From positions 64,001 to 128,000 of the IMG/VR virus record IMGVR_UViG_3300021399_000102: 64,000 nt of DNA. One strand, 5' to 3'. Below the pieces are notes generated by a model. The model saw only the letters and a list, made by a program, of their open reading frames with translations, had not been told where the DNA came from and did not search any database. This DNA comes from a virus (Duplodnaviria > Caudoviricetes). Of this stretch, positions 2-60,463 are shown in pieces (position 1 is the stretch's first letter; every line of letters begins with the position of its first letter). The translations under genes were made by a program, and so were the position numbers.

Positions 2-697
2 ATATGGACAGGAGAAGTTACGCAGTTGAACGAGCCAAGCAAGGACATCAACAAGGTCATGCTGGAGTTCGAGTGCTATGGTACGGATTCCCAATCCATC
101 CACATTCAAGGAAAGACGCTCATAAACAGGGCGTTGGACGATGGCGAGTATGGTTCTTCTTCTGAGAACGTTCCTTCTGATCCAATCAATCGCATCACAA
201 TTGCATTCAATGCAAATGGTGGTACAGTTGAGGAAACTTCAAGAACTGTGGTTGTTGGAGAATTGATAGGCGAGCTTCCAACTCCAACGAGAGATGGATA
301 TATGTTCGATGGCTGGTGGACTTCCTTGTCGGACGATTCTGGAATCAGAATATATGGAGGAGACGACAACAGTTTCATCACATAGGATATGGATACCCTT
401 TATGCGCATTGGATCCCGATATTGAGGAAGTCTATGACAATCTATGGAGATAACGACTTGACATCTGGTCAAACGAGCGTGTATGATTGCTTCGCCTCGT
501 TTGAGGATGGTTCTGTGGACAAGGTATCTCCAACATGGACTGTCCAAGAGGGTAGCATTGAATCAACTGGAATGTTTACTGCCCCAAATGTCACCAGTGA
601 AAAGCTTGTGACAATACACGCTGAGTATGAGGATGAGAATGGGCAGAGGGCAAGTGGAGATTTCCAAGTGAGAATAACACCAAATGCGGGGACATGA
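2..697 (+). CDS. 5'-truncated surface/virion protein with InlB B-repeat and Ig-like domain (one in-frame TAG at 383-385)
   Basis: ORFs 26..385 and 389..697 are in the same frame. B-repeat motif ITIAFNANGG..LPTPTRDGYMFDGWWT continues across the TAG to the terminal TLYAHW. Frame is open from base 2. Confidence 0.8.
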
Positions 698-698
698 C

Positions 699-1385
699 AT
701 GGCGACAACAGCAGATGTAAACAAGGAAATGGTTAAGAAGTACAAGGTGGATAACACCATCTTGGAATCCTACTTCAAGAATGCAAGCAATACGCCAGTT
801 GCTGGAGTGGTCTTTCCACTTCGTCTGGACAACAGGCAATATTGCTCCCCAACTGACTATCAGGGGAGCAAGCCATCTTGTTGTGGCTATTCAACTGCCC
901 AAATCTTGGAATCCTTGAATTGGATGGATACTGGCAACATCGTTCAGATGGATGCGGACCAAATATACGCCAAGGCAAAGGAAGTTGACAATCAAATGGG
1001 ACAAGGTGGAACATACCCAGACCTTGCCATGCAAAAGGGACTTGAACTGATTCCAGATGGAACAAAGAAGTACAAGGTGATGACTTCAACTTCCAGGGAC
1101 ATAAACGAGTTGAAGCGAATCATTCACAAGTCAATGTTCGCTTCTGTGAATATGGTTGTAACGAAAGACATCTACAATCTGGATGACAAGAACTTTGTCT
1201 ATGAGGGTTGGGACAAGAAGGCTGGTGGTCATTCCTTGGTGTGTTGCGGCTATGACGACCCCTCAAAGATGGTGATATTGCAGAACCACTGGGGTACTAT
1301 TTGGGGTCTAAAGGGCTTCTTCCTATGTCCATATGATGTTTGGAGGAGGCAATGCAACATCTTCTGTTGGTACGAGCGTATTTGA
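699..1385 (+). CDS. Papain-family (C1) cysteine protease
   Basis: QGSKPSCCGYS (catalytic Gln/Cys), GGHSLVCCGYDD (His), QNHWGTIWG (Asn); ATG at 699. Confidence 0.85.
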   Translation: MATTADVNKEMVKKYKVDNTILESYFKNASNTPVAGVVFPLRLDNRQYCSPTDYQGSKPSCCGYSTAQILESLNWMDTGNIVQMDADQIYAKAKEVDNQMGQGGTYPDLAMQKGLELIPDGTKKYKVMTSTSRDINELKRIIHKSMFASVNMVVTKDIYNLDDKNFVYEGWDKKAGGHSLVCCGYDDPSKMVILQNHWGTIWGLKGFFLCPYDVWRRQCNIFCWYERI

Positions 1386-1395
1386 ACCTATAATT

Positions 1396-1441: not shown

Positions 1442-4400
1442 ATGAGGATAGTCATAGACAAGGATATATCAGAGGTCAAGCTCCTTCAGGAGTCTTGGGA
1501 GAAGAGCAAGCCAACCTACAAGGTAGTTGCGGTAAATGATGTGGATAGGTTCGTGTATGCCAAGGGACTCAAGAGCATCAATGAAGCTGTGGATGCCACA
1601 TATGAGTCTGCTTGGGATGGTGCATTTGACGATTGCCACAAGGAGATTGTGGAGGTTGTTGGCGAGAGCGAAAAGACCATATTCTCCACCAACGACAAGG
1701 TTCAAGTTTGCGAGTCGGTTCTATTTTCTGAAGCTTCTGCACCAAAGAAGGGTGGTGGAAAGAATGACGCAAAGGATGCCAAGACTGGTCAGAACAAGCC
1801 TGGAATGTGGGACAAGATAAAGGGTGCTGCTGGAAAGTTGGCTGATGGTGCAAAAAAGGCACTTGATGGTCTCAAGAAGGGATTGAACATCGTTGGTGCG
1901 ATGACAAAGCAATTCTCCAAGGATATGCTTAAGAAGTGGCGTGAAGCTGGATATTTCAACAAGGATGGACGCATCACTGGGCTTGGATACAAGGTCATGA
2001 CAGGACAGGTGAAGAATACTGTTCCCGTGGATACCGGCAACGACAAGGCAGACGACATTACTCAGGCTTGGAAGATTGCGCAATCAAACGTTCAGAATGC
2101 TTGCAAGCAGCAAGGAATGAAAGTCACTGGCGAGGTCAAGGCTATTGTCAAGCAGGATAAAGACCCAATTACCCTGTCAGTTGATGTTACTGACAAGGAT
2201 GGCAACAATTCCACGATTGAACTCAACCAGGATGGAACTACAGTTGATGGTGACGCGCAGAATGCTGACCAAGGTGGTGGTGACAATGGAGGTGGCCAAA
2301 ATGGTGGAGGAGACAATGGTGGTGGTGCAGGAGGGGGCGCAAACATCCAGCAGATAACACCCGACCAGGCGCAGAAGAATCCCAAGGCCGCCCTTGGCAA
2401 CCTCGCCACTCGCGTTGCCAATCTCGAAAAGGAGGTTGGAATCGCAGCAGAGTCTTGGAACTTCAACAACGAGCAGTTCACCAACAAGGCTGGTCTTGAG
2501 CGTCTTACAATTCGCAGGTTCTTCAACGAGATGAACGACCCTTCCGTGAAGGAAATCGTGTTCGTCTCTGAATCTGGCGAGAAGAAGACCTATTACACCA
2601 ATTCTGGCTCCAGCGCATATGCGGCATTCAAGAAGGACTTCAGGGAATCCACAGACAAGTGCGCCAAGGTTTCCAACTTGGTTGGCTACAAGGTCACATT
2701 CGAGTCCTCAACGGCAAAGAGCAACAGAAGGGGATTCAAGTTCTCTGACTTCGGGTTGGATGACGACTTCGATTCCGAATCCAGAACGTTGGTCATCAAG
2801 GAAAGCGTCACGAGGGTGTCCAATGGTGGGGACAACAGAAAGTAGACTTCCACCAAGAAGGAAGTCGTGAAGGAGTCTTCGTCCAATGAAGATTCTGACG
2901 CCAGATTCTCTTCCACTACGGTTGATGCCAAGTCTCCAGAAGCAGACCCAGGAACAAGTGGCTTTGAACTTGAGATTGGGGAACTTGATCCAAAGAAGGA
3001 GGTTGAGGCTCTTCTCAAGTCAATGAACAAGTACAATGGACAGGAGAAGGACAAGCCAGCTGATGGAGATGGCACGATTGACACTGGTGTTTCCACTTAT
3101 CCAGATGTTCCAGAACCAAAGAAGCAGGAAATGAAAGGTGCCGAAACGGGGGAGGAAATCGTCAAGGAAGCCGAAGGGGACGAAGGTGGAGATGATGCTG
3201 GCGGTGACGACGCAGGTGGTGGAGACGCCGACCCATTTGCTGGAGGCGACGACGCAGGGGGTGGCGATGCTGGTGGTGGCGATGCAGATCCATTTGCTGG
3301 AGGAGACGATGCTGCCGGAGGCGACGACGCAGGGGGTGGAGACGACGCAGACCCCTTTGGTGGAGGCGATGATGCTGGCGGAGATGCAGGAGCTGAAGGG
3401 GGAGACGCTGGTGCAGAAGGTGGTGAAGATGCCACATCAGATGCAGGAGCCGCAGGTGGTGACGAGGCCACTGGCGAACCATCTCCAGAGCCAGCGGTGA
3501 ATACTGACGCCCAAGGCAATCCAAAGTCTCAGTACAACATCAACGTAACACGTCCATTCAACGTGGAAGATGATTTCTCCCTTACTGAGGACGAGCAAAA
3601 GGAGTTCTTTGGCAAGATTGATCAGTTGGTGAAGATTCCTGACATGGACAACTATTCGCTTTACCTCTATCAAATCACACCGGAGAACATGAATCTTGAC
3701 GATGTTCACTACATCCAAGCACTCTATGAACTCTCAGTGAAGCTGGGTCTGCTTGAGGATGTCTATGCTGACTCCAACTTGCTTGACAAGTACAACTCCT
3801 ACAAGTATTCAGTTGTGAAGAATGGAGAGGAGAACAAGGGAGAGGACTTCAACGTTCAGGAGCAGAAGAACCCAATCTGGGGCAACAAGATGATGCTTGA
3901 AGCCAAGGATAAGGACACCAAGAAGGTTCTTGGAATGCCAACGGTTCAGACCGACAACGAGGAGAAGAACAAGGAGTCCAGGGAGATTGGTGCGTCTGAG
4001 AAGGACGATGAACGCCGTGGCCCGAAGGACATGAAGCTTGACCTTGACAAGAACGGCGCCCCAAAGCCCAAAATCATCGACACCAGAAAAGATGGTTGGG
4101 AGAAGGAGGGACGTGAGAACAAGAAGTTGATTGATGGAACGGTAGAAGGTGCTTTCCACGGACTTGGCTGGGTTGTGACCTTCAAGGCAATGCAATTTGG
4201 TTCCCCAAGGTTCATGTCAATGTACATCAAGAGGAAAGGTGACGAGAAGGCAGAGAAGCAGTGCGAGGATTACCTCAAGAAGCTTTCCTACACTGAAATT
4301 GAAATCCTCAACATTGAGGAAATCGACCCCTACGAATACATCTATCGTCAAGGAGCTTCAGGGATGAAGACGCCAGAGGAATTGGCTACCGCAAAGGTTG

Positions 4401-4930
4401 CCAACAAGGACATGCCATATTTGGAGAGCAGCGAGGTTCCTGAACTTCCAACTGACATCAAGCGCGATGTCAAGAGGGTGATTACGAAACTCAATGCTGA
4501 GATTCGTGGCACAAAGCAGTTCAACTTCCTTGAGTCATGTGGAGTGGAGAAGCCACAGATTGTGGTAGAGGAGTTCCTTTCTGGCTACAAGAAGGCTCAA
4601 GTGAATGAAACTCTTTCTGAGACCACCTACAAGTGGGTGTTCAAGAAGAATGACGACTTGTTCTCCCGTATGTTCTATTCCAACATGAAGGAGAAGTTGA
4701 TGCAGTATCTTGGAAGTTTCGCTCAGAAGTTCAATTTGGAATGTGGTTGCGAGGTCACGCCTACTGCCATAAAGATTGACTTCATGCGTTCAGAACTTGG
4801 CAATCCAGGATATGACCTTGACACGATGATTGATGCTGACGTTGCGACCCAGCCTGTGGAAGAGCCAATTGAGCAATCCAACGTTGCTCCAACTCTCGAC
4901 CAGGCTATGGAGATTGCAAAGAGCCTGTGA
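1442..4930 (+). CDS. 1162-aa acidic, Gly/Asp-rich protein, probable head/internal virion protein (in-frame TAG at 2843-2845)
   Basis: ORFs 1442..2845 and 2867..4930 join in frame (NRK*TSTKKEVVKES). Low-complexity spacers and many hydrophobic-X-Glu sites resemble T4-like prohead-processed proteins (function is inference). Confidence 0.65.
3175..3465 (+). repeat. Coding low-complexity repeat, GGDDAGG / DADPFAGG units
   Basis: Three DADPF(A/G)GGDDA units and many GGDDA units in the translation. Confidence 0.85.
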
Positions 4931-5542: not shown

Positions 5543-5899
5543 TTATGTGGATGAGTTTCTTGGCTTGAAACCTGACTTGATGTAGGGAGTGAACCTGTTG
5601 TGCGTCTTTGGCACTATCTTCAGGAGCAACTTGTACATCAATTCTGGTTTGTCTGCCAACCCCTCCAATATAGTAAGGTGGCCGAGTATCAAATTCCTTA
5701 CAAAAATATTTGAGTTCAGAGACAGATATCTGAGAATCATGTAGGACGAGAACACCGATGGGAACAATTCGTTCTTGATGTGGTATTCGTATAGGGCATC
5801 GTCCTTGTCAACGAGAATGTTGCCAAGAATCATGAATATGTCCAAACTTGGCTTTGTCTCGTCTGAACCTTTCTTGGCTTTCTTGTAGTTAAATGCCAT
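5543..5899 (-). CDS. Possible T4 gp62-like clamp-loader small subunit
   Basis: Size and FSSYMILRYLS...LMYKLLLKIVPK pattern recalled from gp62-like proteins; weak. Confidence 0.4.
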   Translation of the reverse strand: MAFNYKKAKKGSDETKPSLDIFMILGNILVDKDDALYEYHIKNELFPSVFSSYMILRYLSLNSNIFVRNLILGHLTILEGLADKPELMYKLLLKIVPKTHNRFTPYIKSGFKPRNSST

Positions 5900-6941
5900 T
5901 GTACCCACCCCTCGTCAATCTCTCGCAAGTCGCTTCATATTCCTTCTCGTCCATATTCAACCTCTTCAACAGTTCGGACTTCGACTTTGCTGCCTCTGAT
6001 ATGTAGGTTGTCAATCGCTTTCTGGATTCAGATGGGATGTCTGTTATTATGGTTGAACACTTGTTGAACACCTTCTTGAACAGATAGAGGAAAATTTGCT
6101 TGTTATCATAGGACTTTTCGTTCTGCTCCACAATGGACAATAGGTATCCCATCATTTGCTTGGCTTTGTCTTTCTCTATGTTATCAATGGCATTTCCCTT
6201 GAATCCCTTGATTGTGTTGTAGAGGTCTTGGTTTGCCTTTGTCCTCAACCTTTCCATTCTTTCCGACCCAGTTTCGCTACCTTCTCCATCTGAGGGGGAA
6301 TGATAGTCGGGGGCAATTGATTCTGGCGTAAGCACTTCCTCCAACGTGGTTGTGTTTCCAGGGTCATTCACCACCAAGGGGGAGCTTAAGGAAGTATGGT
6401 TCTCCATTGCGCCCTTCTCCTGATTGGGCTTCCTCACCCTGTTCAACATCCACCAGGTTGCGAATGTGATGAACTTGTTTCCGCGTTTGGGGTCGAACTT
6501 CTCTGCGGCTATCACCAACCCCTCGTTCGCCATCTGCTTGAAATCGTCCAAGTCATACCATTTGGTTGGAGAGTCTTTCATGTACCTCTTGAAATAGACC
6601 TCAGCAAGATTCTCGCCCGCCTTGGTGTTGTGCAGAACGAGCAATTTGTTCAACTCCGGACGATTGTCCTTGAACAACTCAATCATGCGGAGTTCTGACG
6701 CCTTGTCCAAGGGTATTAGATTCGTCTTGAAGAAGAGCTTCCACTCATCGTCCGTGAAATCCTCTCCGGTCTCTTGTTTCCCAATCTTCTCTGCAAACGC
6801 CTTTACTGCCTTCTTGACTTCCTTGAGATACTTGTCTCTATATCCCTTCGTTGCCCTATTCACATTGACATATGAAACCTTTGCTGGCACAACCTTGCGC
6901 TTCTTCTTGGTCTTCTTTGATGTATTGGCATTCTCTTCCAT
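5889..6941 (-). CDS. Phage sigma70-family RNA polymerase sigma factor
   Basis: Region 2 motif DFKQMANEGLVIAAEKFDPKRGNKFITFATWWM and SLSSPL. Confidence 0.8.
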   Translation of the reverse strand: MEENANTSKKTKKKRKVVPAKVSYVNVNRATKGYRDKYLKEVKKAVKAFAEKIGKQETGEDFTDDEWKLFFKTNLIPLDKASELRMIELFKDNRPELNKLLVLHNTKAGENLAEVYFKRYMKDSPTKWYDLDDFKQMANEGLVIAAEKFDPKRGNKFITFATWWMLNRVRKPNQEKGAMENHTSLSSPLVVNDPGNTTTLEEVLTPESIAPDYHSPSDGEGSETGSERMERLRTKANQDLYNTIKGFKGNAIDNIEKDKAKQMMGYLLSIVEQNEKSYDNKQIFLYLFKKVFNKCSTIITDIPSESRKRLTTYISEAAKSKSELLKRLNMDEKEYEATCERLTRGGYNGI

Positions 6942-6976
6942 AGATATGTTCCTTCTTCCCAATATATTGTACCACA

Positions 6977-7798
6977 TCAGGCGTTGTTTGGTAAACCGTA
7001 GTTCCTCCAGAGGGTCTCGGTCTTCGTCTTGGGTCTTCTATTCCCATCTATGGTATTCACGTTGAAGAGAACCTTGGTGAAGCCATTTGCCTCAAGTCTG
7101 TTGTAGATGGGATTGTCGTAGCCAGATATCAGAATCTTGGATTTGGATTCCAAGCACTTGTCGATGAACCGTTCATGGAAAGCATCGTCTTGGTCTATGT
7201 CATATCTGGTTGCGCCACGGGTAGACCATACATAGGGTGGATCGCAATAGAGGAAGCAATTGGATTGGTTGTACTTGTCCATCAATTCCAATGCGTCCCT
7301 ATTGAATATGACAAGGTGCTTGAGACGTTCGTGAAGTTCTGGCATTCTGTCAACCGAGGAAAGGAAATCTGACACCGACTTTGCCATGTTCCTTCTGACG
7401 AGAGAGTTTGTGGCGAATCCCCCTATGCCATTGATTGAGAGCCGATTGCAAATGAAATACCAATATGCTCTGTCAAGTTCTGACAAGTTTGTGTCCTTCA
7501 ACTTCTCCCTTGCGTCATATCTCATGTCCTCGGAGTATGGCGTGAGTTCAACAAGTTTGAGGAATTGTGGAAATAGGGTTTCGTCCCTCAGAATCTTGTA
7601 TAGGCAATAGACGTTCTTGTTGAGATCGTTGAATATCTCTATTGGTGGGATGTAGGGCATGTGTAGACCAATGGTGTAGGAGCCAGAGAACAATTCTGCG
7701 TAGATGTCATAACTTCCTTGCTCAGGAAATTGAGCAATGATATTCTTGAACATTAATGATTTCCCACCAAAGTATTTAATAGGTGCATTCATGCGCAT
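6977..7798 (-). CDS. Dam/D12-class DNA adenine methyltransferase
   Basis: PIKYFGGKS, YAELFSGS, EIFNDLN, FLYCDPPY, ETLWRNY. Confidence 0.9.
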   Translation of the reverse strand: MRMNAPIKYFGGKSLMFKNIIAQFPEQGSYDIYAELFSGSYTIGLHMPYIPPIEIFNDLNKNVYCLYKILRDETLFPQFLKLVELTPYSEDMRYDAREKLKDTNLSELDRAYWYFICNRLSINGIGGFATNSLVRRNMAKSVSDFLSSVDRMPELHERLKHLVIFNRDALELMDKYNQSNCFLYCDPPYVWSTRGATRYDIDQDDAFHERFIDKCLESKSKILISGYDNPIYNRLEANGFTKVLFNVNTIDGNRRPKTKTETLWRNYGLPNNA

Positions 7799-7862: not shown

Positions 7863-8315
7863 TTAGCTTGGCATGTTCCAAGTGATGTTGTCAGAGAATG
7901 ATGTATCAGCAATTGAAGTAATTATCATCTGCTTGACATTTTCAGCATTTCCACCATTTGCTGTGATCGTTACGCTTGTAAAATAGTTGCAATACTATAA
8001 CGCACCTTCCTCGATGCTCGTCACGCTGTCCGGTATCGTCAAACGCTCAAGGTCGCTTTCTTGGAACGCATCAGCTCCGATGCTCGTCACTGTGTTTCCA
8101 ATGTCGGCTTGGGTTATTGTCTTTAGCCATATGAAGTTATCTACATCATAATACCCATTATCAACCATCCATTGCCGGTCAAGTGTACCTGTTATGTCGT
8201 GAGTTTCAACGGTTCCATCTTGAAGAGTGAATCTTGTTTCTGGATGTCCAGAACTTCCACCACCTGTTCCAATGACGATGTTTCCACCATTAAGTCTATT
8301 TATGTGTATTGCCAT
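7863..8315 (-). CDS. BspA-like leucine-rich repeat protein 1 (in-frame TAG at 7995-7997)
   Basis: IGNTVTSIGADAF / IPDSVTSIEEGAL*YCNYFTSVTI: the repeat continues past the TAG to TAA at 7863. Confidence 0.8.
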
Positions 8316-9916: not shown

Positions 9917-10741
9917 TTATTTGGTTCCGGATGAGCCAAATCCACCACCTCGGTCGCTTCCCTTGGTGATGTCGTCATAGACGCAATTGAGGCATTCGCT
10001 CAACTTGAGGTTTATCACTGGGACAATCAACCCTTGGGTAATCTTCATCCCGGGTTCAATCTTCACTGACCCGACATTGTGGTTGAAGAAGCAGAAGATG
10101 ATTTCATCCCTATATTCAGAATCAATCAAACATGCGCTATGGTCAAGTTTGAGTTTGGTGGCAACGCCAGACTTGTTCACCATCATCATAGCAAGTCCCG
10201 GTGGGATAATGGTCTTGATGCCAGATGGGATGGCGACATGTGCGTTTGGACTTACTTCAAGAACATTCCCATCAAACTTCAATCCATCAAATGTAGTCCC
10301 ATCCGGGTTGGGGGCTTCCATGTTCTTGGAATACTTCTTCACAGTATCCTTGAAGTCGTCGTTCCATGCCTTTGCGTCAGGGACAAAGAAGTCGATTCCT
10401 GCGTCGGTTGGATGCGCCTTGGCTGGCTTATTCACCTCTCTGATTCTCGTGAATATCAGGGGTTGGTTTGTGTGGCAATGGCATTTCTCCTTTTCACTTT
10501 CTTGTTCCATCATTTTTTCAATCTCCTTTTCCAAATGTGATTCCGGGAACGTGACCTTTGGCATTGGCACATTCTCGTTCTCTGCTTCCTCCATGTCCTT
10601 CTTCGCGCTTTCCTTGGACTTCTCCTAAAGACTGGTCATTATGTGGTCGATGGTTTCCTCTGTGGTGTTCTCGTCAGAAGCCGCTTCAGCAAGTTTCCCA
10701 ATCAAGTCCACAATGTTCTTCTCTCGTTCGTTCAGTTCCAT
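9917..10741 (-). CDS. dut: Trimeric dUTPase with N-terminal extension (in-frame TAG at 10625-10627)
   Basis: DAGIDF, NKSG, LIDSEYRDEI, KITQGL, RGGGFGSSG. The frame extends through the TAG to ATG 10741, adjacent to the upstream gene's stop. Confidence 0.9.
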
Positions 10742-11157: not shown

Positions 11158-11724
11158 TTATGCTACGTTGATGATGCTTGTGTTGGAAATATCCCATGGG
11201 TAGTTGTCCATCTCTTGAACTTCTTCAAGAGTCTTTCCAAGGAATGTCACGCTCGTAAGTCCGGTGCAGGCCTCGAACGCAGACTCCCCGATGCTCGTCA
11301 CGCCGTTCGGTATCGTCACGCTCGTAAGCCCGCTGCAACCAGAAAACGCAAAATCCCCAATGCTCGTCACGCTGTTGCCTATCGTCACGCTCGTAAGTTT
11401 GTCGCAGTCACAGAACGCCAAAGACCCAATGCTCGTTACGCTATCGGGGATTATCACGCTCGTAAGTCCGGTGCAGGCCTTGAACGCAGAATCCCCGATG
11501 CTCGTGACATCTGAACCGATTTCAAGCGCAACGACATTATAGATATTTGGAATCTATGCTGTTGCACTTCCATCATCATCACTGATTGCTCCAGTTATGC
11601 TGACCGTTCTCCATTCAGTGTCGCCAGCATACTTGTACCAAGTGTCGGCATGAGTTGTTGGAGCAGAACCACTTGAACCAACCGTAATGTTTCCACCATT
11701 TAGTCTGTTTATTTGTATTGCCAT
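11158..11724 (-). CDS. BspA-like leucine-rich repeat protein 2 (in-frame TAG at 11554-11556)
   Basis: Starts MAIQINRLNGGNITVG like paralog 1, reads through SATA*IPNI into four IPDSVTSIG..AF..C..LTSV repeats. Confidence 0.85.
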
Positions 11725-11755: not shown

Positions 11756-12391
11756 TTATTTACACTTTCTTGTTTCTTCAATCTGCTGGCGTTCCATTTC
11801 CGCCATGCAGAATTGAAAGCTTCTTGGTGTCATTGCCATCCACGGCATCATTGAACCAACATTGAGAGAGTTCAGTGGATAGTTCTCGTTCTATGACTTG
11901 TACAACTCAGATTGGCACAACTTGAACGAGTCGTATTCCCAGGAGTTGTGTACATGACCATAGAACATTGGGTTGCCCTTGTATCGGCCATTCCAAGTGT
12001 AGAAGGGATAATGCGTCAGAACCAACCGAACGCCATCCCCAATGTTCTGCTCCTTGTAGTTCTTGATTTCCACGAACTAGTTTCTGAAATCGTTGTCGTA
12101 GAGGAACTGATAGTCGTGGTTTCCCAATATCAAGTGCTTCTGACCCTTCAAGTTCTTCAGGATGTTCACCGTGGTCTTTGTGTCGTAGCAAGACACGTCA
12201 CCTAGGATGAACACATGGTCAGTAGGCTGCACTATGGCATTCCAGTTCTTTGACATCCTGTTGTCGTAATCTTTCGGCCCATTCAACTTGTAGTGGGAGA
12301 ACGTCAGATTGTATGCTGACCTCCGAATGGGATTGGTGTCCGTTTGGTAGCCAAAGTGTATGTCAGATATGTAGAAATAGTTTGTCGTCAC
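11756..12391 (-). CDS. Calcineurin-like metallophosphoesterase (in-frame TAGs at 12077-12079 and 11891-11893)
   Basis: SDIHF, LGDVS, GNHD, then THYP, YGHVH, then NVGSMMPWM lie in three in-frame segments; AAAGGAG SD before GTG 12391. Confidence 0.9.
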
Positions 12392-35276: not shown

Positions 35277-35301
35277 GTCAGAAATCTCCTTGTTCCATGT
35301 A

Positions 35302-45157: not shown

Positions 45158-45553
45158 TTATAGTTGGAATTCCGAAACCTTGGCGTCAGTGTTGGTGGAA
45201 AGCCAATCGGCAATCAAGTGCCTATGGCAAAAGTCCCCAATCTTCTCGTAGCAAAGCATTACGGCATTGTCTCCAAGTTTCTCCAACACATTGTGAGGAT
45301 TCAATTTTGACAATACGGTTTCAAGGTATATGTTCTTGTACCATTCCATAGATTCCGGAGAACTTGGATTGTCCTTGAACTTGTCGTGCCATATTCTCCA
45401 CCAGCATCTCTTTGGGGCAAGTTCTGGCATGAACCTTGCATTGGGTGTGTCATAGAAGAACTTTGGCGCATAGCCAGAAACGCACACCAGGTTGTTCAAT
45501 CCACACTCTTGGAGTTTCTTTACTCTTGCGAAATAGGATGTGTAGATGGTCAT
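45158..45553 (-). CDS. DUF488-family protein
   Basis: IYTSYF, LAPK, LCYEK..FCHRHLIA.WL. Confidence 0.8.
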   Translation of the reverse strand: MTIYTSYFARVKKLQECGLNNLVCVSGYAPKFFYDTPNARFMPELAPKRCWWRIWHDKFKDNPSSPESMEWYKNIYLETVLSKLNPHNVLEKLGDNAVMLCYEKIGDFCHRHLIADWLSTNTDAKVSEFQL

Positions 45554-47109: not shown

Positions 47110-47217
47110 CTCTTCTTTCTACAAAAGCATATTTACATAATTGTACACCAAACGGCAAACAAAAATTATATGGACTGATAATCTCCAGCCCAAAGCTACA
47201 TTCAATTCAATGTTATG

Positions 47218-47873: not shown

Positions 47874-48452
47874 TCACTTGTCAAATGCCCCGTAGAGCTT
47901 GAACTTCTTTGAGATAAGATGGGCTTGTTCGTCAGGAAGTGGCTTGAACCACGCCCCAACTGTGCATGTACCATCTGGATTCTCTGGCGTCAGATCGGTA
48001 AGGCACTTGTCGTTGATGTAGCCCCAATCAACCCCCTCAACAAGCCCAAGTTCCTGCACCACTGGCTCAATCTTCGTCTTCAACTGATTGAGATTCTTGC
48101 ATTCGCATATTGTCTTCGTGAAGATGTCGTTGATGTAGCCATTCCATATGTCCTTTGGGATTTCAACAGTAATGCTCACCGACTTCTTTGGAAATTGTGT
48201 CTTTACCTTGAAATATTTTTCCCCAGCCTTGAATGCTTCCTCTGCTTTCTTGCAGACTTCCGGATGCTTGTAGACAGCATACTGACCTGGACGCCACGGA
48301 TCTTCTGCCATCAAGGTGTCAAACTCGTTGTCAACGCAAGGAAACGACTTCAGCATGTTGGTGAAGTATGCTTCTGCACAGTGTCCAATCATGGCAGCAA
48401 GCTTCCCTGGCTTCAGATTCAGGTCTTTCCTGATTATGAACACTCTTCTCAT
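47874..48452 (-). CDS. Peptidyl-tRNA hydrolase, Pth2 family
   Basis: VFIIRKDLNLKPGKLAAMIGH, TKTICE, INDKCLTDL, TCTV, KFKLY. Confidence 0.75.
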   Translation of the reverse strand: MRRVFIIRKDLNLKPGKLAAMIGHCAEAYFTNMLKSFPCVDNEFDTLMAEDPWRPGQYAVYKHPEVCKKAEEAFKAGEKYFKVKTQFPKKSVSITVEIPKDIWNGYINDIFTKTICECKNLNQLKTKIEPVVQELGLVEGVDWGYINDKCLTDLTPENPDGTCTVGAWFKPLPDEQAHLISKKFKLYGAFDK

Positions 48453-48453
48453 T

Positions 48454-49549: not shown

Positions 49550-50536
49550 TCACAAGTCGTCCTTGCCAATGCAGAGGTTGTCGTCAAATGCGCATTTACC
49601 CTCGATGAAATCCTGATATTGCTTGTGGATGAAATATATCTTCTTCTCAGGATGTTGTTCGACAACCAATCGCATCTTCTCTCTATCTGAATCTGGATAT
49701 CCACCCTTTACTTCAACATAGATGTCTCTGTCGGGGATATATAGGTCAGGAATATAGTTATGCCAATAGTCCTTGAAATACTTGATTGGAGCAGCTTTCA
49801 CCCACAATATGCCGAGCGCGTTCAATCTCAATGCCACATTCTCCTCCCAATGCCCACGCACAGAGAATTCCTTGCCCTCCAAGTTCTTTACCTTGTACCA
49901 CTTTACCTTCACATGTTCTTTATTGAGATACTGGTTCATGACTTGTTCGGCACGTTTGGCAGAGATTTTTTGGCGGGTTTCAAGGGTGTGTCTATGCTGT
50001 ACTGCGGACTTTGATATCTCTCCATTCTTGTACCTTTCAGAATATGTTCTTCCACCTTTTTTATATGCTTCATCATGCTGACTTTTTAGCGGATGTTTAT
50101 CGCAATGTGCAAGATGACCACCTAATTTTCCTGGACTTGATAACAATTCCTCACAATACGGACATCTCCACAAAGTTTCTCCATTTATTATGACTTTTTT
50201 GGCATGTTCGGCATTGTGTTCATCTTCAATATGTTTCTTTAATTCTTTTCTTGTCAATAGAACTTTACCGCACACTTTACAGGTCCAAGTGCCATACGGC
50301 GATTGCTTTGCAACTTTTCCTTCGGCTCTCAATTTGTCGAGATGTGCCTTTACCTTTGGGCTGTTGTGTTCAATCTCTTTGTTTATAGAACCAACATATG
50401 CTTCTTTACATTCCTTGGAGCAGAATCTTCCTGATCCATATGTGTGGTCATGTGGTTCTCCACAATTTTCACAAGGCTTGTCTTTGTTTGCAAGGCGTTT
50501 CTATGCCATTGCTTTACGATAGCGTTCTTTATTCAT
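49550..50536 (-). CDS. Zinc-finger PD-(D/E)XK endonuclease, homing-endonuclease-like (TAG at 50501-50503)
   Basis: CENCG..FCSKEC, two C2H2-like fingers, HTLETRQKIS (NUMOD3-like), YIPDLY..YVEVKG. Confidence 0.75.
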
Positions 50537-50608: not shown

Positions 50609-50638
50609 ATCTACACTAGGCGCGAACCTAGTGTAGAT
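50609..50638 (-). terminator. Terminator/processing hairpin downstream of the tRNA
   Basis: Perfect 12-bp stem ATCTACACTAGG-TTCGCG-CCTAGTGTAGAT followed by TTCTT. Confidence 0.75.
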
Positions 50639-50645: not shown

Positions 50646-50724
50646 TGGCTGATCCATCCCCTTCACCACGAGGAACCCGGCGGGTTAGGGCCGCCTGTGC
50701 TTTTAGGTATTACACCATGGATCA
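50646..50724 (-). tRNA. Amber suppressor tRNA (anticodon CUA), tRNA-Gln-like, non-canonical D and T loops
   Basis: TGATCCA-TG-GTGT-AATACCTAAAA-GCAC-A-GGCGG-CCCTAAC-CCGCC-GGGT-TCCTC-GTGGTGAA-GGGGA-TGGATCA-G-CCA: all four stems pair and CCA is encoded. Confidence 0.85.
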
Positions 50725-50774
50725 ATTGAAACTGTCTCGTTTCTCATCACATTCAATTATACGAAATCTCGGCA

Positions 50775-53700
50775 TCAAGAGTCGCCCAAATCGACAGCAT
50801 CACTGTCTTGCATCATCACTGGTTGTGTCGCGTTTCCTCCTGGTGCATTCTCAATCGCCAACACGCTGCCAACGGGTATCTTGTTGACTTCCTCTATGTA
50901 CTCTTGGAGATTTCCATGCAAGCCAATTGCAGTCTCCTTGATTTCACTAAACGTCTTCTCTGAAATCTTGTCTCCTCTTATGAGTGCAAGCTTCAGTTCG
51001 CGCTCTTCCCTTGGCAAGTTTGCAATCTTGTTCTCGGCCTCTTGCTTGAGGTTCTTCACTTCGTCGCCCAATGACTTCAACTCCTTGTCCGTAACAGATC
51101 CTGGGTCGTTTATCATCTTCTCCAATATGGCTTCGTAGTTCTGCTCCTGCTTTCTGATGGCTTCCATAGCCTTTATCTTTGCGTTGGCGATAGCCAATGC
51201 TTCCTTGCGCTTTGCCTCCTCCTTGAGCTTCTTCTCGCGTTCTTCCTTTTCCTTCGCTTCTTTCTCTGCCTTGCGCTTGGCTTCCTCTGCCTCTTGCTTC
51301 CTCTTTTCCTCCTCAATCTCAGTCATCGTCTTCGGAGGTGGTTCAAGCACCTTGGTCTGAACGTCGCCAGCCTTCTTGACAATCTTGTTCCCTGAGGATT
51401 GCGCATCAAGTCTGGCTTGCTTCTCCTTCTCCAACCTGTCCCAGAATTGCTTTAGTTGCTTGAGGTAGGTGTAGTCCCCTGAGAATCTGGCCTCGAACTC
51501 GGCCTTCTGCATCAGCTTCTTGAGGTCGTTGATGGAACTTTCGAGTTGGACGTCAGACATGCTTCCAATCTTCCCCCAAATGCCCTGCCAAGACTTCAGA
51601 ATCTTGTCCTTGCCCTTGGCGTCAGGGATACCCATCTGCTCCCTGTAGGAATCAAGCTTCCACTTCTGCCAGAAATGTGCGTTGGAATAGTCTATGACCT
51701 TTATCTTCATGTTGGGGAATCGGAGATGCTTGTACATGAAGGCGAAGATTCCCTTTTGGGACATCAAGGTGTTGAGCTTGACGACACCCTTCAGCAATTT
51801 GGCGTTGGTGTCTTCGGTCTTGTATGTGATTTCGTCAGAAAGAAGTTTCTCAACTATGTTCCATTGTGGGAGTACCTTGTACTTGAGGTATTCGAGGAAC
51901 ACCTGAGCGAAGCCAGCTTGGGTTGGCTCGTCACCCATCACTTGCTTCCAATCATAGCCAGATATGCTGGCCATGTTGAAGAACCAGCTCATCAAGTCGT
52001 GGATTCTGTTCGCCTTTTCAACCTTTGTTCCCTTTGGCAATATCCCTTTTCCAATAAGGAAGTCAATCAATGGGATTGCTGCCCCGACAGTTCCCATTAT
52101 CTGACCATTGGCAAACAAGTCCAACGCGCCAGAATCAAGCCAGAAGTCACGGACGTCTCCATATGTGACTCCTGCCGCCTTTGTTCCCCTCCATTCAGCA
52201 ATCGTGGCGAGAGCTTGCGCTTTTCTCTTCTGTCTATTGGCAAACCTCTTTGTGCGTTCCCACCAACCAAGGTTCTTGCCGTCAGAGAGTTCTCCATTTA
52301 CGTCATCTTTAGCCTTGTCGTAGTCGAGGATTCTCTTTGTGTTCTGAATCCCCTTCTTTGCAGCTTGGAATCCCTTTACAGTAAGGAACGCGGCGCCAAC
52401 TGCTGCTGCCCCCACGACTCCACCAACGGCTACACCTGCAAATGCTGCCGTCTTCCATTTCTATCCTGGGCTTAAGTCATCCCATTTCTCGGAAAGCCAA
52501 CCCTGAGATTGCCCCTTCGCAGTCTCCAAGTTGTTGTCCTTGCCTTGAATCTTACCGGCTCGGAGCTTCTTTAGGAACCTTACAAATCTGTCCTTGAACA
52601 GAACATCCTCTTCCTTTTCATATCCACCAATCTTGTGGCTCACCAAAGCGCTGTTCCATTCTGTCCAATATTTTGCCAATTCCTTCGTGTCTATGGCAAG
52701 AGGCTTTCCTGACCATATTGAATACCCATCCCATCCCTTTAGATATCTGTTGTATATTTCACGTATTGCTTTCGCCCTTGCCAATTCATAGAGAATTGGA
52801 TGCACAGAAATCTTTGCCCCATCTTGCATCCATGTGAATGGCATGAATCCTATGGAATCGGCTTCGGCGTCTGCTGGCTTGCCGAAATACACGTCTGCTG
52901 TCTTGTGCAACGCCTCAAAAGGCTTCAATGGGATGATGGAGCGCAAATCAGATGCCATCACCCTATATCCCCTGTTCCATCCTGTATTTGGATCGTACAA
53001 TGGACCTTTTACGTTCTTGAAGCGTTGGGACTTCGACAACTGAAGGATATATGAATCCAATGTCCTTATCTGAGGGACAATGGCGTCTGCCAAATTCTGT
53101 CTGATCTTTTCAGCCTTCTTGTGCATCGCCTCAATCAGCTATGGAGATGCATTCCCCTGCATTCGGGCAATTTGGATGTATTTAAGTTCGTCTGTGAACT
53201 TTTGGGAGGCGTTGTGAATCGTAACAAGAAGGTCGCCAGAATTTTTGGACTTGAGCCTCTTTTCGACATCTTCCTCTGCTGCATCCTTGCTCTTGTCCAT
53301 CTTGTCCTTTTGCATTTTCTCAGCATTGGCGAAGTTCTTGTTTGTGTGGACAGGGACATGGCGCATTATGGCACCCTTCGTGGGCATCTTGCCTCCAGCT
53401 CTGCTTGACGTCTGAAGTCCCTCTATTGCGTTCAATTGACCCTTGAATGGCTTTACTCCCTTGGCATTGGAGAGCAACATCCCCTTGAATTGGGCAACCT
53501 TGCTCTTTCCACTGGCCATTTGGTCCGCAGCCATGTTCTATGCTTGCTTTTCTACTGATGCCCTCTTGCCAGACCACAACGCCATCACCTGGTTCATTAT
53601 GAACGTGAATATCGCAGGGACGAACTTGGATATGAATATCAAGGTGGAGCCAGCACCAGGGAGAAACAGATTGAGGATGAATCCAATCGCAGCAACAATC

Positions 53701-55871
53701 GCGCCAGCCGCCTTCTTCGTGTGTCCTATGATGATTGAGGCAAATATTCGTATCAGATTGTATTTGGTCGTTATCAAGTCCTTGAAGATGCCCTTCTTGC
53801 CAAAGAGCTTATTCTTCATGTCGCCAAAGAAGAACTTTAACCTGTCCCAATAGTTGGGAAGTCCAACTGTTATGAAGTTCCATATGCCAAGGCCAATGGC
53901 TTTCAACGTGTCCCATCCAGGGATTGGAATTCCGAATATGGAGAACTTAGAACCATCAGATTTTGGCATGTAGGTGGCGCACCATTTTCTGAGAGCCAAT
54001 CTGGCGAGGGTGATGAGAATGAGACCACCTATGATGGTGAATGCAATTGGGGCGATTCCACCCATGAGCAATCCAAGAAGTCCTGGTCCCTTTGGCTTCT
54101 TCTTGAGATCCTTTATGCCTTTCTTGGTTGCATCCAAGTCCTTGGATATGGTGGCTTCAGAATTGTCAATCTTCTTCATCTGCTTTTGCAGACCACCCTG
54201 AATCTTCGTGAAGTTCATCGTGAAGCCATTCTTGAACTTCTTGTTGTTCAATTGTTGTTGAACATTCTGATGCACCTTTCCAAGCGCATTGAGGACTCCA
54301 TTTTTGGTAATCTTGCTTCCACCCTCGCCATCTTCAGAAGATGGTTGTGGAGCTGGAAGTTGAGCTTTCTATGGACTTACATGTGGTACACCAGGTAGAT
54401 GTAAATATCCGCAAATTGGGCAAGGATGTTCCCCATTTTTGGACGGCTTCACATTGAGTTTCGTGTCTTTGGGCTTCTGTGGTGGTTGAAGCTTTGTCTC
54501 ACCGGCCTTCTTCGCTTCCTCTCCTGCCTTGGAAACCTTCGGAACCAATGGACTCAATTCATCCTTCGGTGGTTGTTCCTCCTTTGGATTCTTCTTTGCG
54601 TCAAGATTATCTGTGTCCTTTAGGGTTATCCTCTCCTGATCTTGCTACTTCATCTTCTGAGCAAGGTCTTGTTGAAGCTTGGACTTGTCAAATCCAACTT
54701 CGGGATTGGATATTTTAGTGTCTGCCTTCTATGTAAGGGCGTCAGATTTGTCTGTGTCTTTGTTGTACGCTTCCTCAACCTTCGCCATTGGGCGAATCAA
54801 TGGTGCGGGGATTGGGGTCTTTATCTTTCCATCAAGGATGTTCTTGGCGTATATCGTTCGGAGATATTTTTCCTTTTCCTTTGGATCTTGTATCTCCTGA
54901 AGTGCCTTTGCTTGCTCTGGGGTTATGTTTGGGATAGGAACCTTTGGCGCACCTTCCATTGCAAGAACTTTTCTCCCAAGCTCGTTCTTGGAGGTGTCTA
55001 TCGCAGAGGTTCCTTGTCCAGAAGCCTTTGGTTGTTGGGCTTCCTTCCAAGACTTCTCCTTCGCCTTGAGTTCCTCAACTGCCTTCAACTGCCCCTTTAC
55101 GCCAGCAACGAGCTTGTCCCAATTGATTTTTCTCTGCTCCTTTGCCGCGTCAGTTAGGTTCTTGTCCTCCATCAAGGTTTGGGCGAGAATGTTCTTGCTT
55201 GCATTGCCAGTTGCTTGGTTGAACTTCTCCATCAACTTGGAAAGTTCATTGAGGTGTTCGTCCTTCCATTTCGTCTCGTCTTCTGCAACTTGCCCAAGTG
55301 TCTCTGATATCTCAGTTGTTTGCTGCGAAGATTCTGCCTTCAGATTGTCCAAGTCCTCTTGCTGTCCAGCCAAGGACTTCGCATACTCCAACCTGCGTCT
55401 CTCGTATTCCCTGGAGAGATTCAACTTGACTTGCAATATTGAAGTTTGCAATTCGTCTATGAAGTCAAGCACAACCTGCATTGGGTCGCAGGTCTCTGGG
55501 TCGAGGGTCTTTGTGACAACCTTCTTGGTTGTTTCTGAGACCAATGCCTCATCCACCTTGTCTGGCTCTATTCCCTCTTGCTTGCTCTTGATTACCTCAA
55601 TGAGCTTGTCAACGGCATCCGTATCTTGGACGATTTCAAGAAAGTCGTCGTTCAAGGAACGATATACTGTACGCAACAAGGTCTCTGAATTAGCACCTTG
55701 CTTCAACAACGCCCCATTTGTGAATGCGTCGAAGAGCTTGGTCATGTTGGCATAGATTTCCTCCATGTTCTTTGTCTTGGATACGTTCTCTACGCTTCCG
55801 ACAAAGGACTTGAAGTTCTCTGTGGCCGAATTAAAGACCTTTTGGTTGTCTATTGTGCTTGATTGTGCCAT
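50775..55871 (-). CDS. 1698-aa helical protein, probable tape-measure/baseplate-hub-like virion protein (six in-frame TAGs)
   Basis: Six listed ORFs join in one frame across TAGs at 54729, 54645, 54369, 53538, 53139 and 52461; coiled coils and TM-like Gly/Ala segments; function inferred. Confidence 0.75.
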
Positions 55872-56630: not shown

Positions 56631-56669
56631 GTCATAACCTCTGTTGGTTTGGTTCTATTTACAATCATT

Positions 56670-57788
56670 TCAGCGAAATGGTCTCATTGCGTCGGCCACC
56701 ACCTTGAACAATTTGTTTCTTGTATCTGAATCCTGAAAGTCCATCAATCCTCTTGCCATCTTGTAGAACTCCCTATCGGTCATCATTTGGAGCAAGAAGT
56801 CAGTGGCATCCACGTTGTGCAAGGTGCAGTCAAGTTCAAACGACTCGAACACCCCATCTGCTGTCTTCATCCATTCATCCACCATCAAAGTGGAAAGGTC
56901 TTTCTTCTCCAATTTCTCGAAGTTCTCGTTCCAATTCTTCTCAATTTTCTCTTGACTGAACAACTTGTATGTTCCACCAGTAGGGGATAGTTTGTCCAGT
57001 TCTTGGCAGAGTTGATTCCAAGCCATCATCTTCACCCTGTTGGTGTATATCCCCTTCTCGTCAGCAAGTATGTGCTTTATGAGCAATTGGGGTGGGTTCA
57101 ATTCATGTCCAGGTTTCCAGGTTCCGCGCAAGTTGAAGCCCATCTTGTTGAACTTTGACAGGAACTCAAAGTATTTGGAGAGGTTTCCAACAAGCACGAT
57201 ATGCTCTGCCTCTGACAATTCTTGGAAGAACTTTGGGTGCAAGAACTCCGGCAAGAACAAGGAATAGCTGAAGTCAATCTTGCTCTTGTCCTTTGTCTCT
57301 AGAAACTCTTGAATCTTGTTCAGAAGCATTTGCCTTGGGAGCAGTCCTCTTTGGAGTACTGTCAAGTCTGCGTCCTTCATGTTGTTTCCAAGCATGGTCA
57401 ATGGATTGTGAAGGGGATCTCCACCAAGAAAGCCAGTTTCAAGCAAGAACCTCTTGTAGTCGATGATAAGTTCCTTGTTGCTTGAAGATTCCATCTGATA
57501 GTTGAAGTACATTCTGGTGATTCTTGGCATTCCTGGGATGCAAGCGAACAATCTGTGCCTGAATGGAATGCTGAACTTGTCCAATACGTCAAGCTTGAAC
57601 ATCCAATATGAACAAAGGGACATTCTCACTGCGTCAAAGAGAATGTTGTCGTCAGCGAGAGAACAGTTCAATTCGACCACAGCAGGTGTGGTCGCTGGAG
57701 ACATAATCAAGTCATCCAAGTTCAAGGGACATTGAATGTAGTCCTTTGGATTTGGTGGAGCAATGTTCTTCTTCTTTCCTGGCATCAT
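56670..57788 (-). CDS. Hypothetical protein
   Basis: Long ORF; likely start MMPGKKK, since the listed longer start overlaps the divergent gene. Confidence 0.6.
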   Translation of the reverse strand: MMPGKKKNIAPPNPKDYIQCPLNLDDLIMSPATTPAVVELNCSLADDNILFDAVRMSLCSYWMFKLDVLDKFSIPFRHRLFACIPGMPRITRMYFNYQMESSSNKELIIDYKRFLLETGFLGGDPLHNPLTMLGNNMKDADLTVLQRGLLPRQMLLNKIQEFLETKDKSKIDFSYSLFLPEFLHPKFFQELSEAEHIVLVGNLSKYFEFLSKFNKMGFNLRGTWKPGHELNPPQLLIKHILADEKGIYTNRVKMMAWNQLCQELDKLSPTGGTYKLFSQEKIEKNWNENFEKLEKKDLSTLMVDEWMKTADGVFESFELDCTLHNVDATDFLLQMMTDREFYKMARGLMDFQDSDTRNKLFKVVADAMRPFR

Positions 57789-57829
57789 ATGAAGTATACA
57801 ACTTGCGCCAAAAATGGTAAATACAGTTG

Positions 57830-60463
57830 ATGGATACTGAAATGACAACAAGAGGCGAGACTGGAGCGCAAATTGGCGGCCAGATGGGCGCACAAGCTGG
57901 TGGTTCTGCTGGCGCTGCGATTGGTTCTGCCTATGGCGGCCCCATTGGAGGAATGATTGGCCAGTACATTGGCGAGAAAGTGGGAGAACAAGTTGGCTCT
58001 GCTGTTGGAGACTATGCTGAAGATACTGCCACTGACATGGCGAAGGACATGTTGAACAGCGAAGAACCACAGAAGAAGAAAGGTGGTGGATGTGGCGGTG
58101 GAGCTGGAAAAGGCGACTCAAGTTCTGACAGTGCAGAATATCCATCTGGGGGAGATCCAGAGAAAGACTTGGGCGACGTTGGCATGGACGATGTTGATGA
58201 TTCTGTCAACAGGATGTGCAAGAAGGTCTTTACAGTATATAGGGCAATTCCAAAATTCGCCTCCTGCCCAACTGCATATCGAGACAACGTTTCCGATCAA
58301 TTCACGCCACAAGACGACTTGCTTACGATGGAGAAGACCGTAAGGGACTTCTTGAAGCTTGAAGGGAAGATATACGATCCTCAAACAACCAATCCAAGGT
58401 TCTTCGCCCCAGAGGGATGGGTGCAACACTACGAGAAGGACAAGAACGTGGTGCTTGCTGCCCTTGACCAATACAAGGCGAACATCCTCAGGATGGAACA
58501 CCTCTACACATTGGTGGACAAGAACTCATACGACAAGTTGAAGTCCATTCCAAACCAAGATTGCAAGGAGAAGTTTCAGACCAACATAATGTGGACGTCC
58601 AGAAGCTTGAAGGATTGGGCGAACAATTGGTTCATCAATCGGATTCCATATTCTTTCACCAAACTCTACTTTCAGGACTATTGGGTTCCTGGTCTCACAG
58701 GACAAATGGTGGAATGGATGAAGCTCGGTACGTATGTTGAGTATGGTGGCGTAAGGGCAATCTCAAACGAAACTTCCATAAGGTTGGTGGATAGGCTTGA
58801 AGCTGTGATTGACAGGTTGATGAACAAGGCAGCAGTGGAGCAAACGATTTCCCAATACGTCAATATCAAGGAGCAAATAGAGGCTACGGCAAAGCAGAAG
58901 GAGGAAAAGATTTTCACCTCCAGGATAATAGACTCCCAGATGGGCAAGAAATTGGGGGTGACAGATACAGGAGTGGAGAACCAAAAGATTGAGGGTACGA
59001 CATACATTGCTCCAAAGGAGGATTAGGTGGAGCAATTCAATCTGATATGCAAATTGAGTTGCGTCAAGAACCTCTTCAAGACGTTTCGGGAGAAGTCCCT
59101 TGAAGCAATGAAGGGATGCAGATGCGTTGCTCCTTCTGGTCCTGGTCCATTTCCCCTCATTTGGTGCAACATAGATGTTCTCGCGGCAAAGGTATATTGT
59201 GCTCTGGGCGTGTTGAACGAACTCATAGAAGACAAGAAAACCGACCATGAGAATCTTGGATGGCATTGCTCAGTGACACACGCCCCATTGTGTCCGAAGC
59301 AACTCAAAATGCACATAACAGCATTCAAGTGCGTGATACGTTAGGGTGTCATAGACGTTATGGTAAATCAAGCGTTGTTGCCAAAGAAAGGCAAGAACAT
59401 CTTGGATTCCATGTTCAACCAACTTTGGGAATATGGAGAGAAGGGACCGACGATTGAGCTTCCAAGTTGGTGTCAAATGGCGATTGACAGTGTCAATGCC
59501 TTTGAGGATTCCTTGTTGGATGCTTGGACTGAGGTATATGACTGCTGGGAGCGCGAATTCTTGACCAGACTTTGGTGGATACAAGTTGAACACCATGGTG
59601 GGGGAACAGATGGAATCATAAATTGCAAGAACAATTGGTTGAGGTTGCAAGAAGTTCCGGTTACCACAGAACATGACCATACGCACGTAATACCAAGTCA
59701 AACCATTATGGATCCTGGCCCAATCGTCATTGAAACTGAAGCACCAACAGAATAGGTTGTGATAAACCAATATGTTGAGTCAGAGACAGCGGCAAGTACA
59801 GGATACGATTCTTACAACTTCGACACTTGTGCATTGAAGGGGCATTTCGTTTGTCCCGGACATCTTACCAAATTGCTCAAGCCATTATGCGTCTGCTACA
59901 AGGTGCATAACATAGAGTATTTGGCTTGCAACTACCGTGCATTTGTGAAGGAACTTTGTCAGTGGATGGTTGCTGCGATAGAAGCGGTTGGAATCAAGCA
60001 AGCTGCAATCTCTGCGGTCATGGCTGACCCAACTCTCAATGGAAATTGTGGCAACGCTGGATGCCAAGGGCCGCTTGGGAAGATAAACGAGCTGAGGGAG
60101 AAGAACCACAAGCTTCTTGAAAAGGTTGAACACGCCTACGGCATATATTATGATGTCAATAACATGAAGAACAAGAAGGAATACGATGAAGAGATAGCCT
60201 TGCACGAACTCCAGCCAAACAAGTATTCCAACGAGGACATGCTGAACATGTCGTCAAGTCTCCAATCCGAATCCAACGAGTCTGGGCTTGACGCCGATCT
60301 TTGCCAAGGTGGTATAGACATCCCCGAGTTGAAGCCGTGGAACCACCTCAGCTTGTCGGAGAACAAGGTGAAGCCAGAATGCTTGCCATCCAAGTGCGCC
60401 TGCAACAAGTTTGACAAGCTCATCAAGAGCATTGCCAATTTCGAGACTTGGTTCTCCAAATGA
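57830..60463 (+). CDS. 877-aa late protein with N-terminal glycine zipper and Cys-rich C-terminal half (TAGs at 59024, 59342, 59753)
   Basis: Four consecutive listed ORFs in one frame separated only by TAG; ends in TGA. Confidence 0.75.

Follow-up and report, generated by a model that had tools for sequence, protein, structure and literature searches.

TAG as a glutamine codon in late-class genes of a T4-like jumbo phage with a likely amber suppressor tRNA

Introduction

Does TAG end translation in this DNA or is it read as an amino acid, and if so, as which one and by what means? The question was raised by an initial annotation of a 64,000-nt stretch of viral DNA, termed the window below, which comprises positions 64001 to 128000 of the 201,557-bp linear virus record IMGVR_UViG_3300021399_000102 (guanine-plus-cytosine [GC] content, 45%; record rated 48% complete). 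From 24 in-frame TAG triplets it was proposed that TAG is reassigned to a sense codon, probably glutamine (code 15), across the window. As reported below, TAG is best explained as a glutamine codon. The initial annotation overlooked that the recoding is mostly confined to one promoter class and that a suppressor tRNA lies inside the window. TAG-to-glutamine recoding is already known; the form of the suppressor, the series of its replacements, and its coupling to promoters add interest to the present case.

A 422,011-bp contig of the European Nucleotide Archive (ENA) was 100% identical to the record in every stretch compared and probably represents the whole genome of the window phage. This genome (G000, ~420 kb) was analyzed together with three complete relatives with terminal repeats, which were fetched whole: G001, G002, and G003, of 434, 418, and 414 kb, with 47 to 48% GC (45 to 48% in the clade) and a median protein identity of 58 to 69%. 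The complete relatives carry a family B polymerase, a topoisomerase II, a large tRNA array, and a T4-like Gp23 capsid protein (E 1e-72), and by these sequence comparisons we assign the window to a T4-like jumbo phage. The nearest cultured phages in a search of a phage collection showed only 25 to 31% identity. The record names of the relatives, read as study labels, suggest rumen metagenomes. In the limited literature covered we found no description of this virus lineage or of the tRNA form described below, and nothing on a recoded huge phage linked to Verrucomicrobia.

In-frame TAG codons lie in genes that continue

All 24 coordinates listed in the initial annotation read TAG, or CTA in the case of minus-strand genes. 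The genes concerned are as follows (GTAAATA is a promoter-like motif described below).

1..697, plus strand: 3' end of a gene of 3613 codons, which begins 10 kb upstream of the window and has 13 TAGs in total (383 here); Listeria-Bacteroides repeat
1442..4930, plus strand: gene for a protein of 1162 amino acids; TAG 2843; GTAAATA at 1396
7863..8315, minus strand: BspA-type leucine-rich repeat gene; TAG 7995 inside the repeat match
9917..10741, minus strand: dUTPase; TAG at codon 39 (10625); assigned to the sigma70-type promoter class and thus an exception
11158..11724, minus strand: BspA-type leucine-rich repeat gene; TAG 11554 just before the repeat match
11756..12391, minus strand: metallophosphoesterase of 211 amino acids; TAGs 12077 and 11891; full-length homologues of 183 to 250 amino acids
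17031..18522, minus strand: three small genes with TAGs 17058 and 17370; 17753; and 18127, 18166, and 18499; GTAAATA at 17807/17872 and 18566
44636..45049, minus strand: 137-codon gene ending in TAG-TGA (44639)
49550..50536, minus strand: zinc-finger endonuclease (Phage_endo_I, Pfam); TAG at codon 12 (50501)
50775..55871, minus strand: 1698-codon gene without family match; TAGs 54729, 54645, 54369, 53538, 53139, and 52461; GTAAATA at 55903
57827..60463, plus strand: tape-measure-like gene of 877 amino acids (weak PHROG tape measure match); TAGs 59024, 59342, and 59753; GTAAATA at 57817

For 18 sites, the protein sequence could be aligned across the TAG with that of one or more of the complete relatives (383, 2843, 7995, 10625, 11554, 11891, 12077, 17058, 17370, 18166 at the alignment edge, 50501, 52461, 53139, 53538, 54369, 59024, 59342, and 59753); aligning homologues was one of the checks that the initial annotation had suggested. 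Sites 54729 and 54645 are supported by the frame continuity of the 1698-codon gene, in which alignments begin at residue 446, and 17753 (codon 5) is probably read through, as homology starts at residue 8 and no start codon lies between. Three sites do not discriminate: 18499 is codon 8 of a gene with a possible later ATG, 18127 is a second-last codon, and 44639 is indeed part of a TAG-TGA end, which yields almost the same protein under both readings. The statement that all sites except 44639 lie inside continuing frames thus held for most sites and probably also for 17753; 18499 and 18127 give no information on it. As no supported TAG is present from 18.6 to 44.6 kb, recoding "across the window" was overstated. 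With respect to domains, both TAGs of the metallophosphoesterase are inside Pfam matches. For the BspA repeat, 7995 is inside an LRR_5 match and 11554 just before one. In the case of the TAG said to lie within an InlB B-repeat, the Pfam match Flg_new (InlB B-type) stops at residue 103 and TAG 383 is residue 120.

A misread CAG is disfavored by the ENA assembly and a Logan contig, which cover 22 of the sites with 100% identity and probably derive from the same sample by different assemblers. Additional TAGs at codon 5 of 20531-20974 and in 25613-26026, 46486-47205, 48454-48792, and 55871-56275 were rejected because they lie in a shadow frame or precede the likely start.

In a code-blind six-frame test we counted those stops in the best coding frame that are flanked on either side by conserved coding sequence, using a codon-usage filter against antisense alignments. 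Genome-wide, 11 TAG, 2 TGA, and 1 TAA triplets were found (3/0/0 in the window), against triplet backgrounds of 2804 TAG, 8982 TGA (~3-fold more common), and 2619 TAA. Plain six-frame open reading frame cover did not separate TAG read-through from TAA read-through. The gain in coding density expected under code 15 was present but modest, from 0.829 to 0.874 in the window and by 3.5 to 4.8 points per genome in the four genomes (own gene caller, not Prodigal), because most genes carry no TAG. Code 15 merges fragments into genes of 3613, 2586, 1784, and 1698 codons, the clade's largest, which public code-11 calls show in pieces. No gene requires TAG as a stop, and TGA is the main stop codon (about two-thirds of the genes).

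The 1698-codon gene has homologues of 1524 to 2118 amino acids with 6 to 11 TAGs at the same place in three relatives, and its product is probably a virion or ejection protein. The endonuclease homologue of G002 shows 76% identity over residues 1 to 328, with a TAG at the same codon, and 98% in the last 129 amino acids. The endonuclease gene looks mobile: it resembles that of G002, although the tRNA body of G002 differs, and the more closely related G003 lacks it at this place.

TAG aligns with glutamine

The proposal of glutamine as the residue was borne out by alignment, glutamine being the most frequent aligned residue in each of the four genomes. Where flanking identity was 70% or higher, TAG codons of the window genome aligned with glutamine 16 times, TAG 6 times, aspartate 5 times, and other residues 9 times (each at most 2). 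In the case of G003, G002, and G001, the counts were 34, 39, and 41 for glutamine and 9, 13, and 16 for TAG, with at most 14 for the next residue. As controls, CAA/CAG codons aligned with glutamine in ~70% of cases, followed by lysine and glutamate, and TAT/TAC, TGG, and TTG aligned with tyrosine, tryptophan, and leucine, respectively. The TAG profile resembled that of CAA/CAG and was unlike the tyrosine, tryptophan, leucine, and serine controls. Well-conserved TAG sites match glutamine codons or TAG in the four genomes and therefore support code 15.

Within the window, the clearest evidence for glutamine is the phosphoesterase gene: at position 12077 four relatives have CAG and one has CAA, and at 11891 four have TAG and one has CAG. 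TAG 59342 faces CAG in two relatives, and for a more distant relative (39% GC locus) the ENA calls already use TAG as glutamine. At dUTPase TAG 10625 the relatives have arginine or lysine.

A CUA tRNA is maintained at one locus

A tRNA with the anticodon CUA is located between the 1698-codon gene and the endonuclease gene, and two genes for tRNA-related proteins lie within 5 kb of it.

50646..50724, minus strand: amber suppressor tRNA, anticodon CUA, glutamine type, cloverleaf fold
50756..50762, minus strand: GTATAAT motif, a putative sigma70-type -10 box upstream of the suppressor, with no good -35 box
50609..50638, minus strand: 12-bp hairpin followed by a T-rich run 3' of the suppressor, a putative terminator; same hairpin in G003
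45550..46002, minus strand: free-standing YqeY protein (Pfam 2e-25), TAG-free
47874..48452, minus strand: Pth2-type peptidyl-tRNA hydrolase (Pfam), TAG-free, conserved near the suppressor by synteny

The tRNA follows directly after the 1698-codon gene, behind GTATAAT and before the hairpin. Like a canonical bacterial tRNA (Rfam RF00005), it has a 7-bp acceptor stem, 5-bp anticodon and T stems, and CCA, which is encoded. CUA is centered in a 7-nt anticodon loop, the acceptor end has U1-A72, G2-C71, and G73, and the D stem is GUGU/GCAC, as in the phage tRNA-Gln(UUG). The canonical G18-G19, UUCRA T loop, and U33 are absent: the D loop of 11 nt contains CC and no GG, and the T loop of 8 nt (GUGGUGAA) contains GG. 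In the window genome, no CUA tRNA was found by ARAGORN, even with relaxed settings, or by Rfam, which gave no tRNA match here at an E value of 10 or below. The fold is preserved in the homologues of G003 and L150: of 63 cells in the three sequences, 62 are paired, and five pairs are changed on both sides, compared to 0 to 1 in slid controls. The suppressor-type pattern gave no match in five shuffled genomes.

A CUA tRNA was present at the same locus behind the same GTATAATTGAA leader in every relative read there (G000 to G003, L121, L150, and L152); scans with the leader pattern gave only chance matches outside the known relatives. Four suppressor bodies were distinguished: the window type, one with a standard T loop (G002), one with a long variable arm (G001, which has A73, and L152), and a short one (L121; also L149, in a different context). 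Both the long variable arm and A73 are frequent in tRNAs of the clade, tRNA-Gln included. An older suppressor of the L121 type has left its 5' half at G001:C1:410577-410640 (L086), behind the promoter and ahead of the present long-arm suppressor, as a trace of suppressor replacement. Keeping a suppressor at one locus through repeated replacement shows dependence on it, not its purpose.

Taken from its sequence features, the window CUA tRNA is likely the decoder of TAG. U1-A72 is read by bacterial GatCAB (PMC2811023), and this pair also occurs in the tRNA-Tyr and tRNA-Ile of the clade. No phage release factor 1 (RF1), PCRF protein, glutaminyl- or glutamyl-tRNA synthetase (GlnRS, GluRS), or convincing S21 was found in the window genome and the three complete relatives, with first-look filters that may miss distant forms. 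YqeY is present in G000, G003, and L150, which carry the window-type tRNA, and absent from the complete G001 and G002; it may be a helper for the odd suppressor. The three carriers look like one branch and may therefore reflect a single event, so that the link between YqeY and the tRNA is a lead only. L125 also carries YqeY, and no suppressor was found there.

TAG codons follow one of two promoter classes

GTATAAT and GTAAATA were the two dominant intergenic motifs in all four genomes. GTATAAT has a TTTACA-like -35 consensus 17 nt upstream and would function as a sigma70-type promoter; GTAAATA has no -35 box and resembles T4 late promoters. Two sigma-like genes of the window may be relevant in this context.

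5889..6977, minus strand: sigma70-family protein, TAG-free, divergent; candidate reader of the GTAAATA class
62292..63086, minus strand: second sigma70-family protein, TAG-free, divergent; candidate phage sigma factor

With each gene assigned to the class of its nearest upstream motif, TAG made up 7.6% of the glutamine codons in the GTAAATA class but only 0.2% in the GTATAAT class of the window genome (homology-bracketed regions), and 6 to 7% versus 1 to 2% in the relatives. A permutation over 299 gene blocks gave p = 1e-4, whereby the genomes are related and not four independent trials. In GTATAAT-class genes, the last 10 codons held 22% of the TAGs but 4.6% of CAA/CAG; GTAAATA-class genes showed no TAG excess in the last ten codons. 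Such crowding at the ends of early-class genes, as illustrated by 44639 (TAG-TGA), would be expected if early translation still terminated at UAG, and we take it as a sign thereof. The genes for DNA polymerase, helicases, topoisomerase, and ligase are TAG-free.

Proposed switch of UAG during infection and alternative explanations

We propose, with a probability of about 0.92, that this phage is a virulent T4-like jumbo phage whose host uses the standard code, and that it turns UAG from a stop into a glutamine codon in the course of infection. GTATAAT promoters would be used by host sigma70 for early genes as well as for the suppressor tRNA. These early genes avoid TAG or hold it in their last codons; this distribution is observed, and the timing is what the model adds. 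The CUA tRNA, which may derive from the phage tRNA-Gln, carries identity elements that would allow charging with glutamine by host GlnRS or by GluRS plus GatCAB, host enzymes being assumed because no phage synthetase was found. Transcription of the GTAAATA genes would then probably depend on a phage sigma factor, for which the two TAG-free sigma-like proteins are candidates, and the suppressor would outcompete host RF1 at UAG, in line with the alignment of TAG with glutamine. Late proteins would thus require both the late promoter and the suppressor.

Several observations weigh against this proposal. The window suppressor has C33, with U33 in two homologues, and lacks the usual residues of the D and T loops. 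Only ~45 to 65% of TAG sites face glutamine or TAG, which is below the ~70% at CAA/CAG sites. The promoter classes were assigned by motif position and not from transcripts, and a few early-class genes, such as that for dUTPase, contain TAG. Many late genes are without TAG, including the major capsid gene in the three complete relatives; the absence of TAG among 59 glutamine codons in the latter fits incomplete suppression.

One alternative concerns the purpose and not the code, namely, that TAG means glutamine and its late bias is permissive rather than regulatory, TAGs drifting in where the suppressor is present and being purged from early genes. In agreement with this, TAG sites are mostly unshared among relatives and at variable positions, many late genes as well as the capsid gene do without them, and only ~7% of late glutamine codons are TAG. 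A few TAGs are, however, kept in all four genomes (e.g., 11891), and the suppressor has been retained at its locus through repeated replacement, which again speaks for dependence rather than purpose. We give this alternative slightly less than an even chance; a selected lock and mere tolerance of the ambers are about equally likely. A residue other than glutamine or a mixture (glutamate by incomplete transamidation, lysine, or tyrosine), possibly varying among relatives such as G001, is improbable: glutamate, lysine, and aspartate are the next most common residues in the alignments and the G001 suppressor combines A73 with a long variable arm, but the CAA/CAG control shows the same secondary residues, both tRNA features recur in the tRNA-Gln of the clade, and glutamine leads in every genome, including G001 (41 glutamine, 16 TAG, 11 lysine).

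We consider it very improbable that the host itself reads UAG as glutamine and the phage follows, which would explain why no gene needs TAG as a stop and why no phage release factor or synthetase was found. Early genes avoid TAG and crowd the few they have at their ends, as expected if UAG stops early, and the phage maintains a suppressor of its own. To our knowledge, no bacterium uses a code in which UAG is glutamine. Least probable of all are assembly errors or decayed genes; the sequence does come from a metagenome assembly, but two other assemblies are identical, the same TAG occurs in other genomes, and the frames are interrupted by TAG, not by TAA or TGA (11/1/2 in the code-blind test). 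With the alternatives so weighed, a phage-encoded switch to glutamine is the reading that we prefer. The two clean promoter classes provide a sequence-level handle on its timing, including the sign that UAG still stops early genes.

Comparison with known recoded phages

For crAss-like phages, mass spectrometry proved that UAG is glutamine (PMC9523058), and a bias of TAG to late genes was reported for recoded phages (10.1101/2021.08.26.457843). The phage described here behaves like the code-15 phages reported by Borges et al. and by Peters et al. and shares the tested features of that kind. With the code-15 clades of Borges et al. it has in common TAG as glutamine, a structural or late bias, a phage suppressor tRNA, and presumably reliance on host synthetases. 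It differs in size, as 414 to 434 kb fits none of their clade means (562, 210, 201, 154, 34, 34, and 22 kb), and in composition: they describe a route from low GC and TAA preference, whereas the GC content here is 45 to 48% and TGA ends about two-thirds of the genes. A low-GC route is therefore not required. Their screen used a threshold of 5% density gain; the gain here (own caller) is near or below it, and current screens may miss such a medium-GC, TGA-main-stop clade. Their hosts are Firmicutes and Bacteroidetes, whereas for the present phage the PEP-CTERM gene, together with promoters of the Pribnow type, suggests a different host group, and their paper makes no mention of promoters, of which two classes were found here.

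Lak megaphages (Grandevirales; PMC11165621) are likewise very large gut phages with TAG as glutamine and many tRNAs. Their coding density rises from 69% to 89% under code 15, compared to ~4 to 5 points here; they recode replication genes and some carry RF2, whereas the replication genes here are TAG-free and no release factor was found; and their genomes measure ~540 to 660 kb, compared to 414 to 434 kb with terminal repeats. The best matches from the phage collection included no Lak record. Recoded crAss-like phages (PMC9523058) share the two-zone genome and UAG as glutamine late in infection (by mass spectrometry there), whereas the phage here has a T4-like gp23 capsid, family B polymerase, sigma factors, and four times the size. 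It is thus neither a Lak phage, by size and density gain and not by direct sequence comparison, nor a member of the Crassvirales, by capsid and size (414 to 434 kb versus ~100 to 190 kb). An independent origin of the recoding is likely.

T4 late transcription uses gp55 and the promoter TATAAATA. GTAAATA is similar in being an AT-rich, -10-only motif without a -35 box before structural genes, and the capsid, tail sheath stabilizer, and topoisomerase are T4-like as well; the motif itself differs from that of T4. Neither sigma-like protein matched the gp55 models of NCBIfam and Pfam.

Natural suppressors with new bodies also offer raw material for code expansion.

Host

One gene of the window offers a clue to the host.

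46486..47112, minus strand: PEP-CTERM exported protein (TIGR02595 above cut-off); syntenic in three of the four genomes

No phage exosortase was found in the window genome and the three complete relatives, with the same first-look filters as above. Finding a PEP-CTERM gene but no phage exosortase implies that the host is Gram-negative and has an exosortase of its own. Promoters of the Pribnow type speak against Bacteroidetes. The PEP-CTERM protein is a clue that points away from Bacteroidetes and Firmicutes. Rumen Verrucomicrobiota are our best guess. Searches for the host gave a single 30% match to Bacilli for YqeY against GTDB, only a sub-0.9 lead to PEP-CTERM clusters in the Atlas, and only metagenome contigs among NCBI-sourced homologues.

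A more detailed picture, which we regard as speculative and rather unlikely as a whole, is that of an undescribed ~420-kb medium-GC clade on a PEP-CTERM/exosortase host that belongs to neither Bacteroidetes nor Firmicutes, most likely rumen Verrucomicrobiota such as Kiritimatiellae. Such a clade would have reached code 15 without the low-GC route, with late genes gated twice, by late promoter and amber, and with the suppressor body swapped several times at one promoter. In one branch, the tRNA would have its D/T-loop elbow reversed and would need the phage YqeY for charging.

Other features of the genomes

The tRNA array (L001, genome 182.9-194.6 kb) contains at least 35 tRNAs, many of them with a noncanonical T loop or a long variable arm and several with low Rfam scores; one is split by a group I intron-like element (L001:12813-13047). 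The DNA polymerase is encoded in two genes (L003:2676-4781 and L003:6740-8056) with another frame between them, and the second part starts with ~125 residues that the polymerase match does not cover. Window positions 33441-35312 encode a TAGT-family glycosyltransferase (HMC glucosyltransferase-like PHROG), which suggests modified DNA, and three N6/N4 methyltransferase genes are present at and past the right end of the window. In related phages (L156 to L158), Pth2 adjoins an RNA ligase, two VWA genes, and a Ser/Thr kinase. Upstream in L157, code-11 gene calls are very sparse, and recoding is also possible there.

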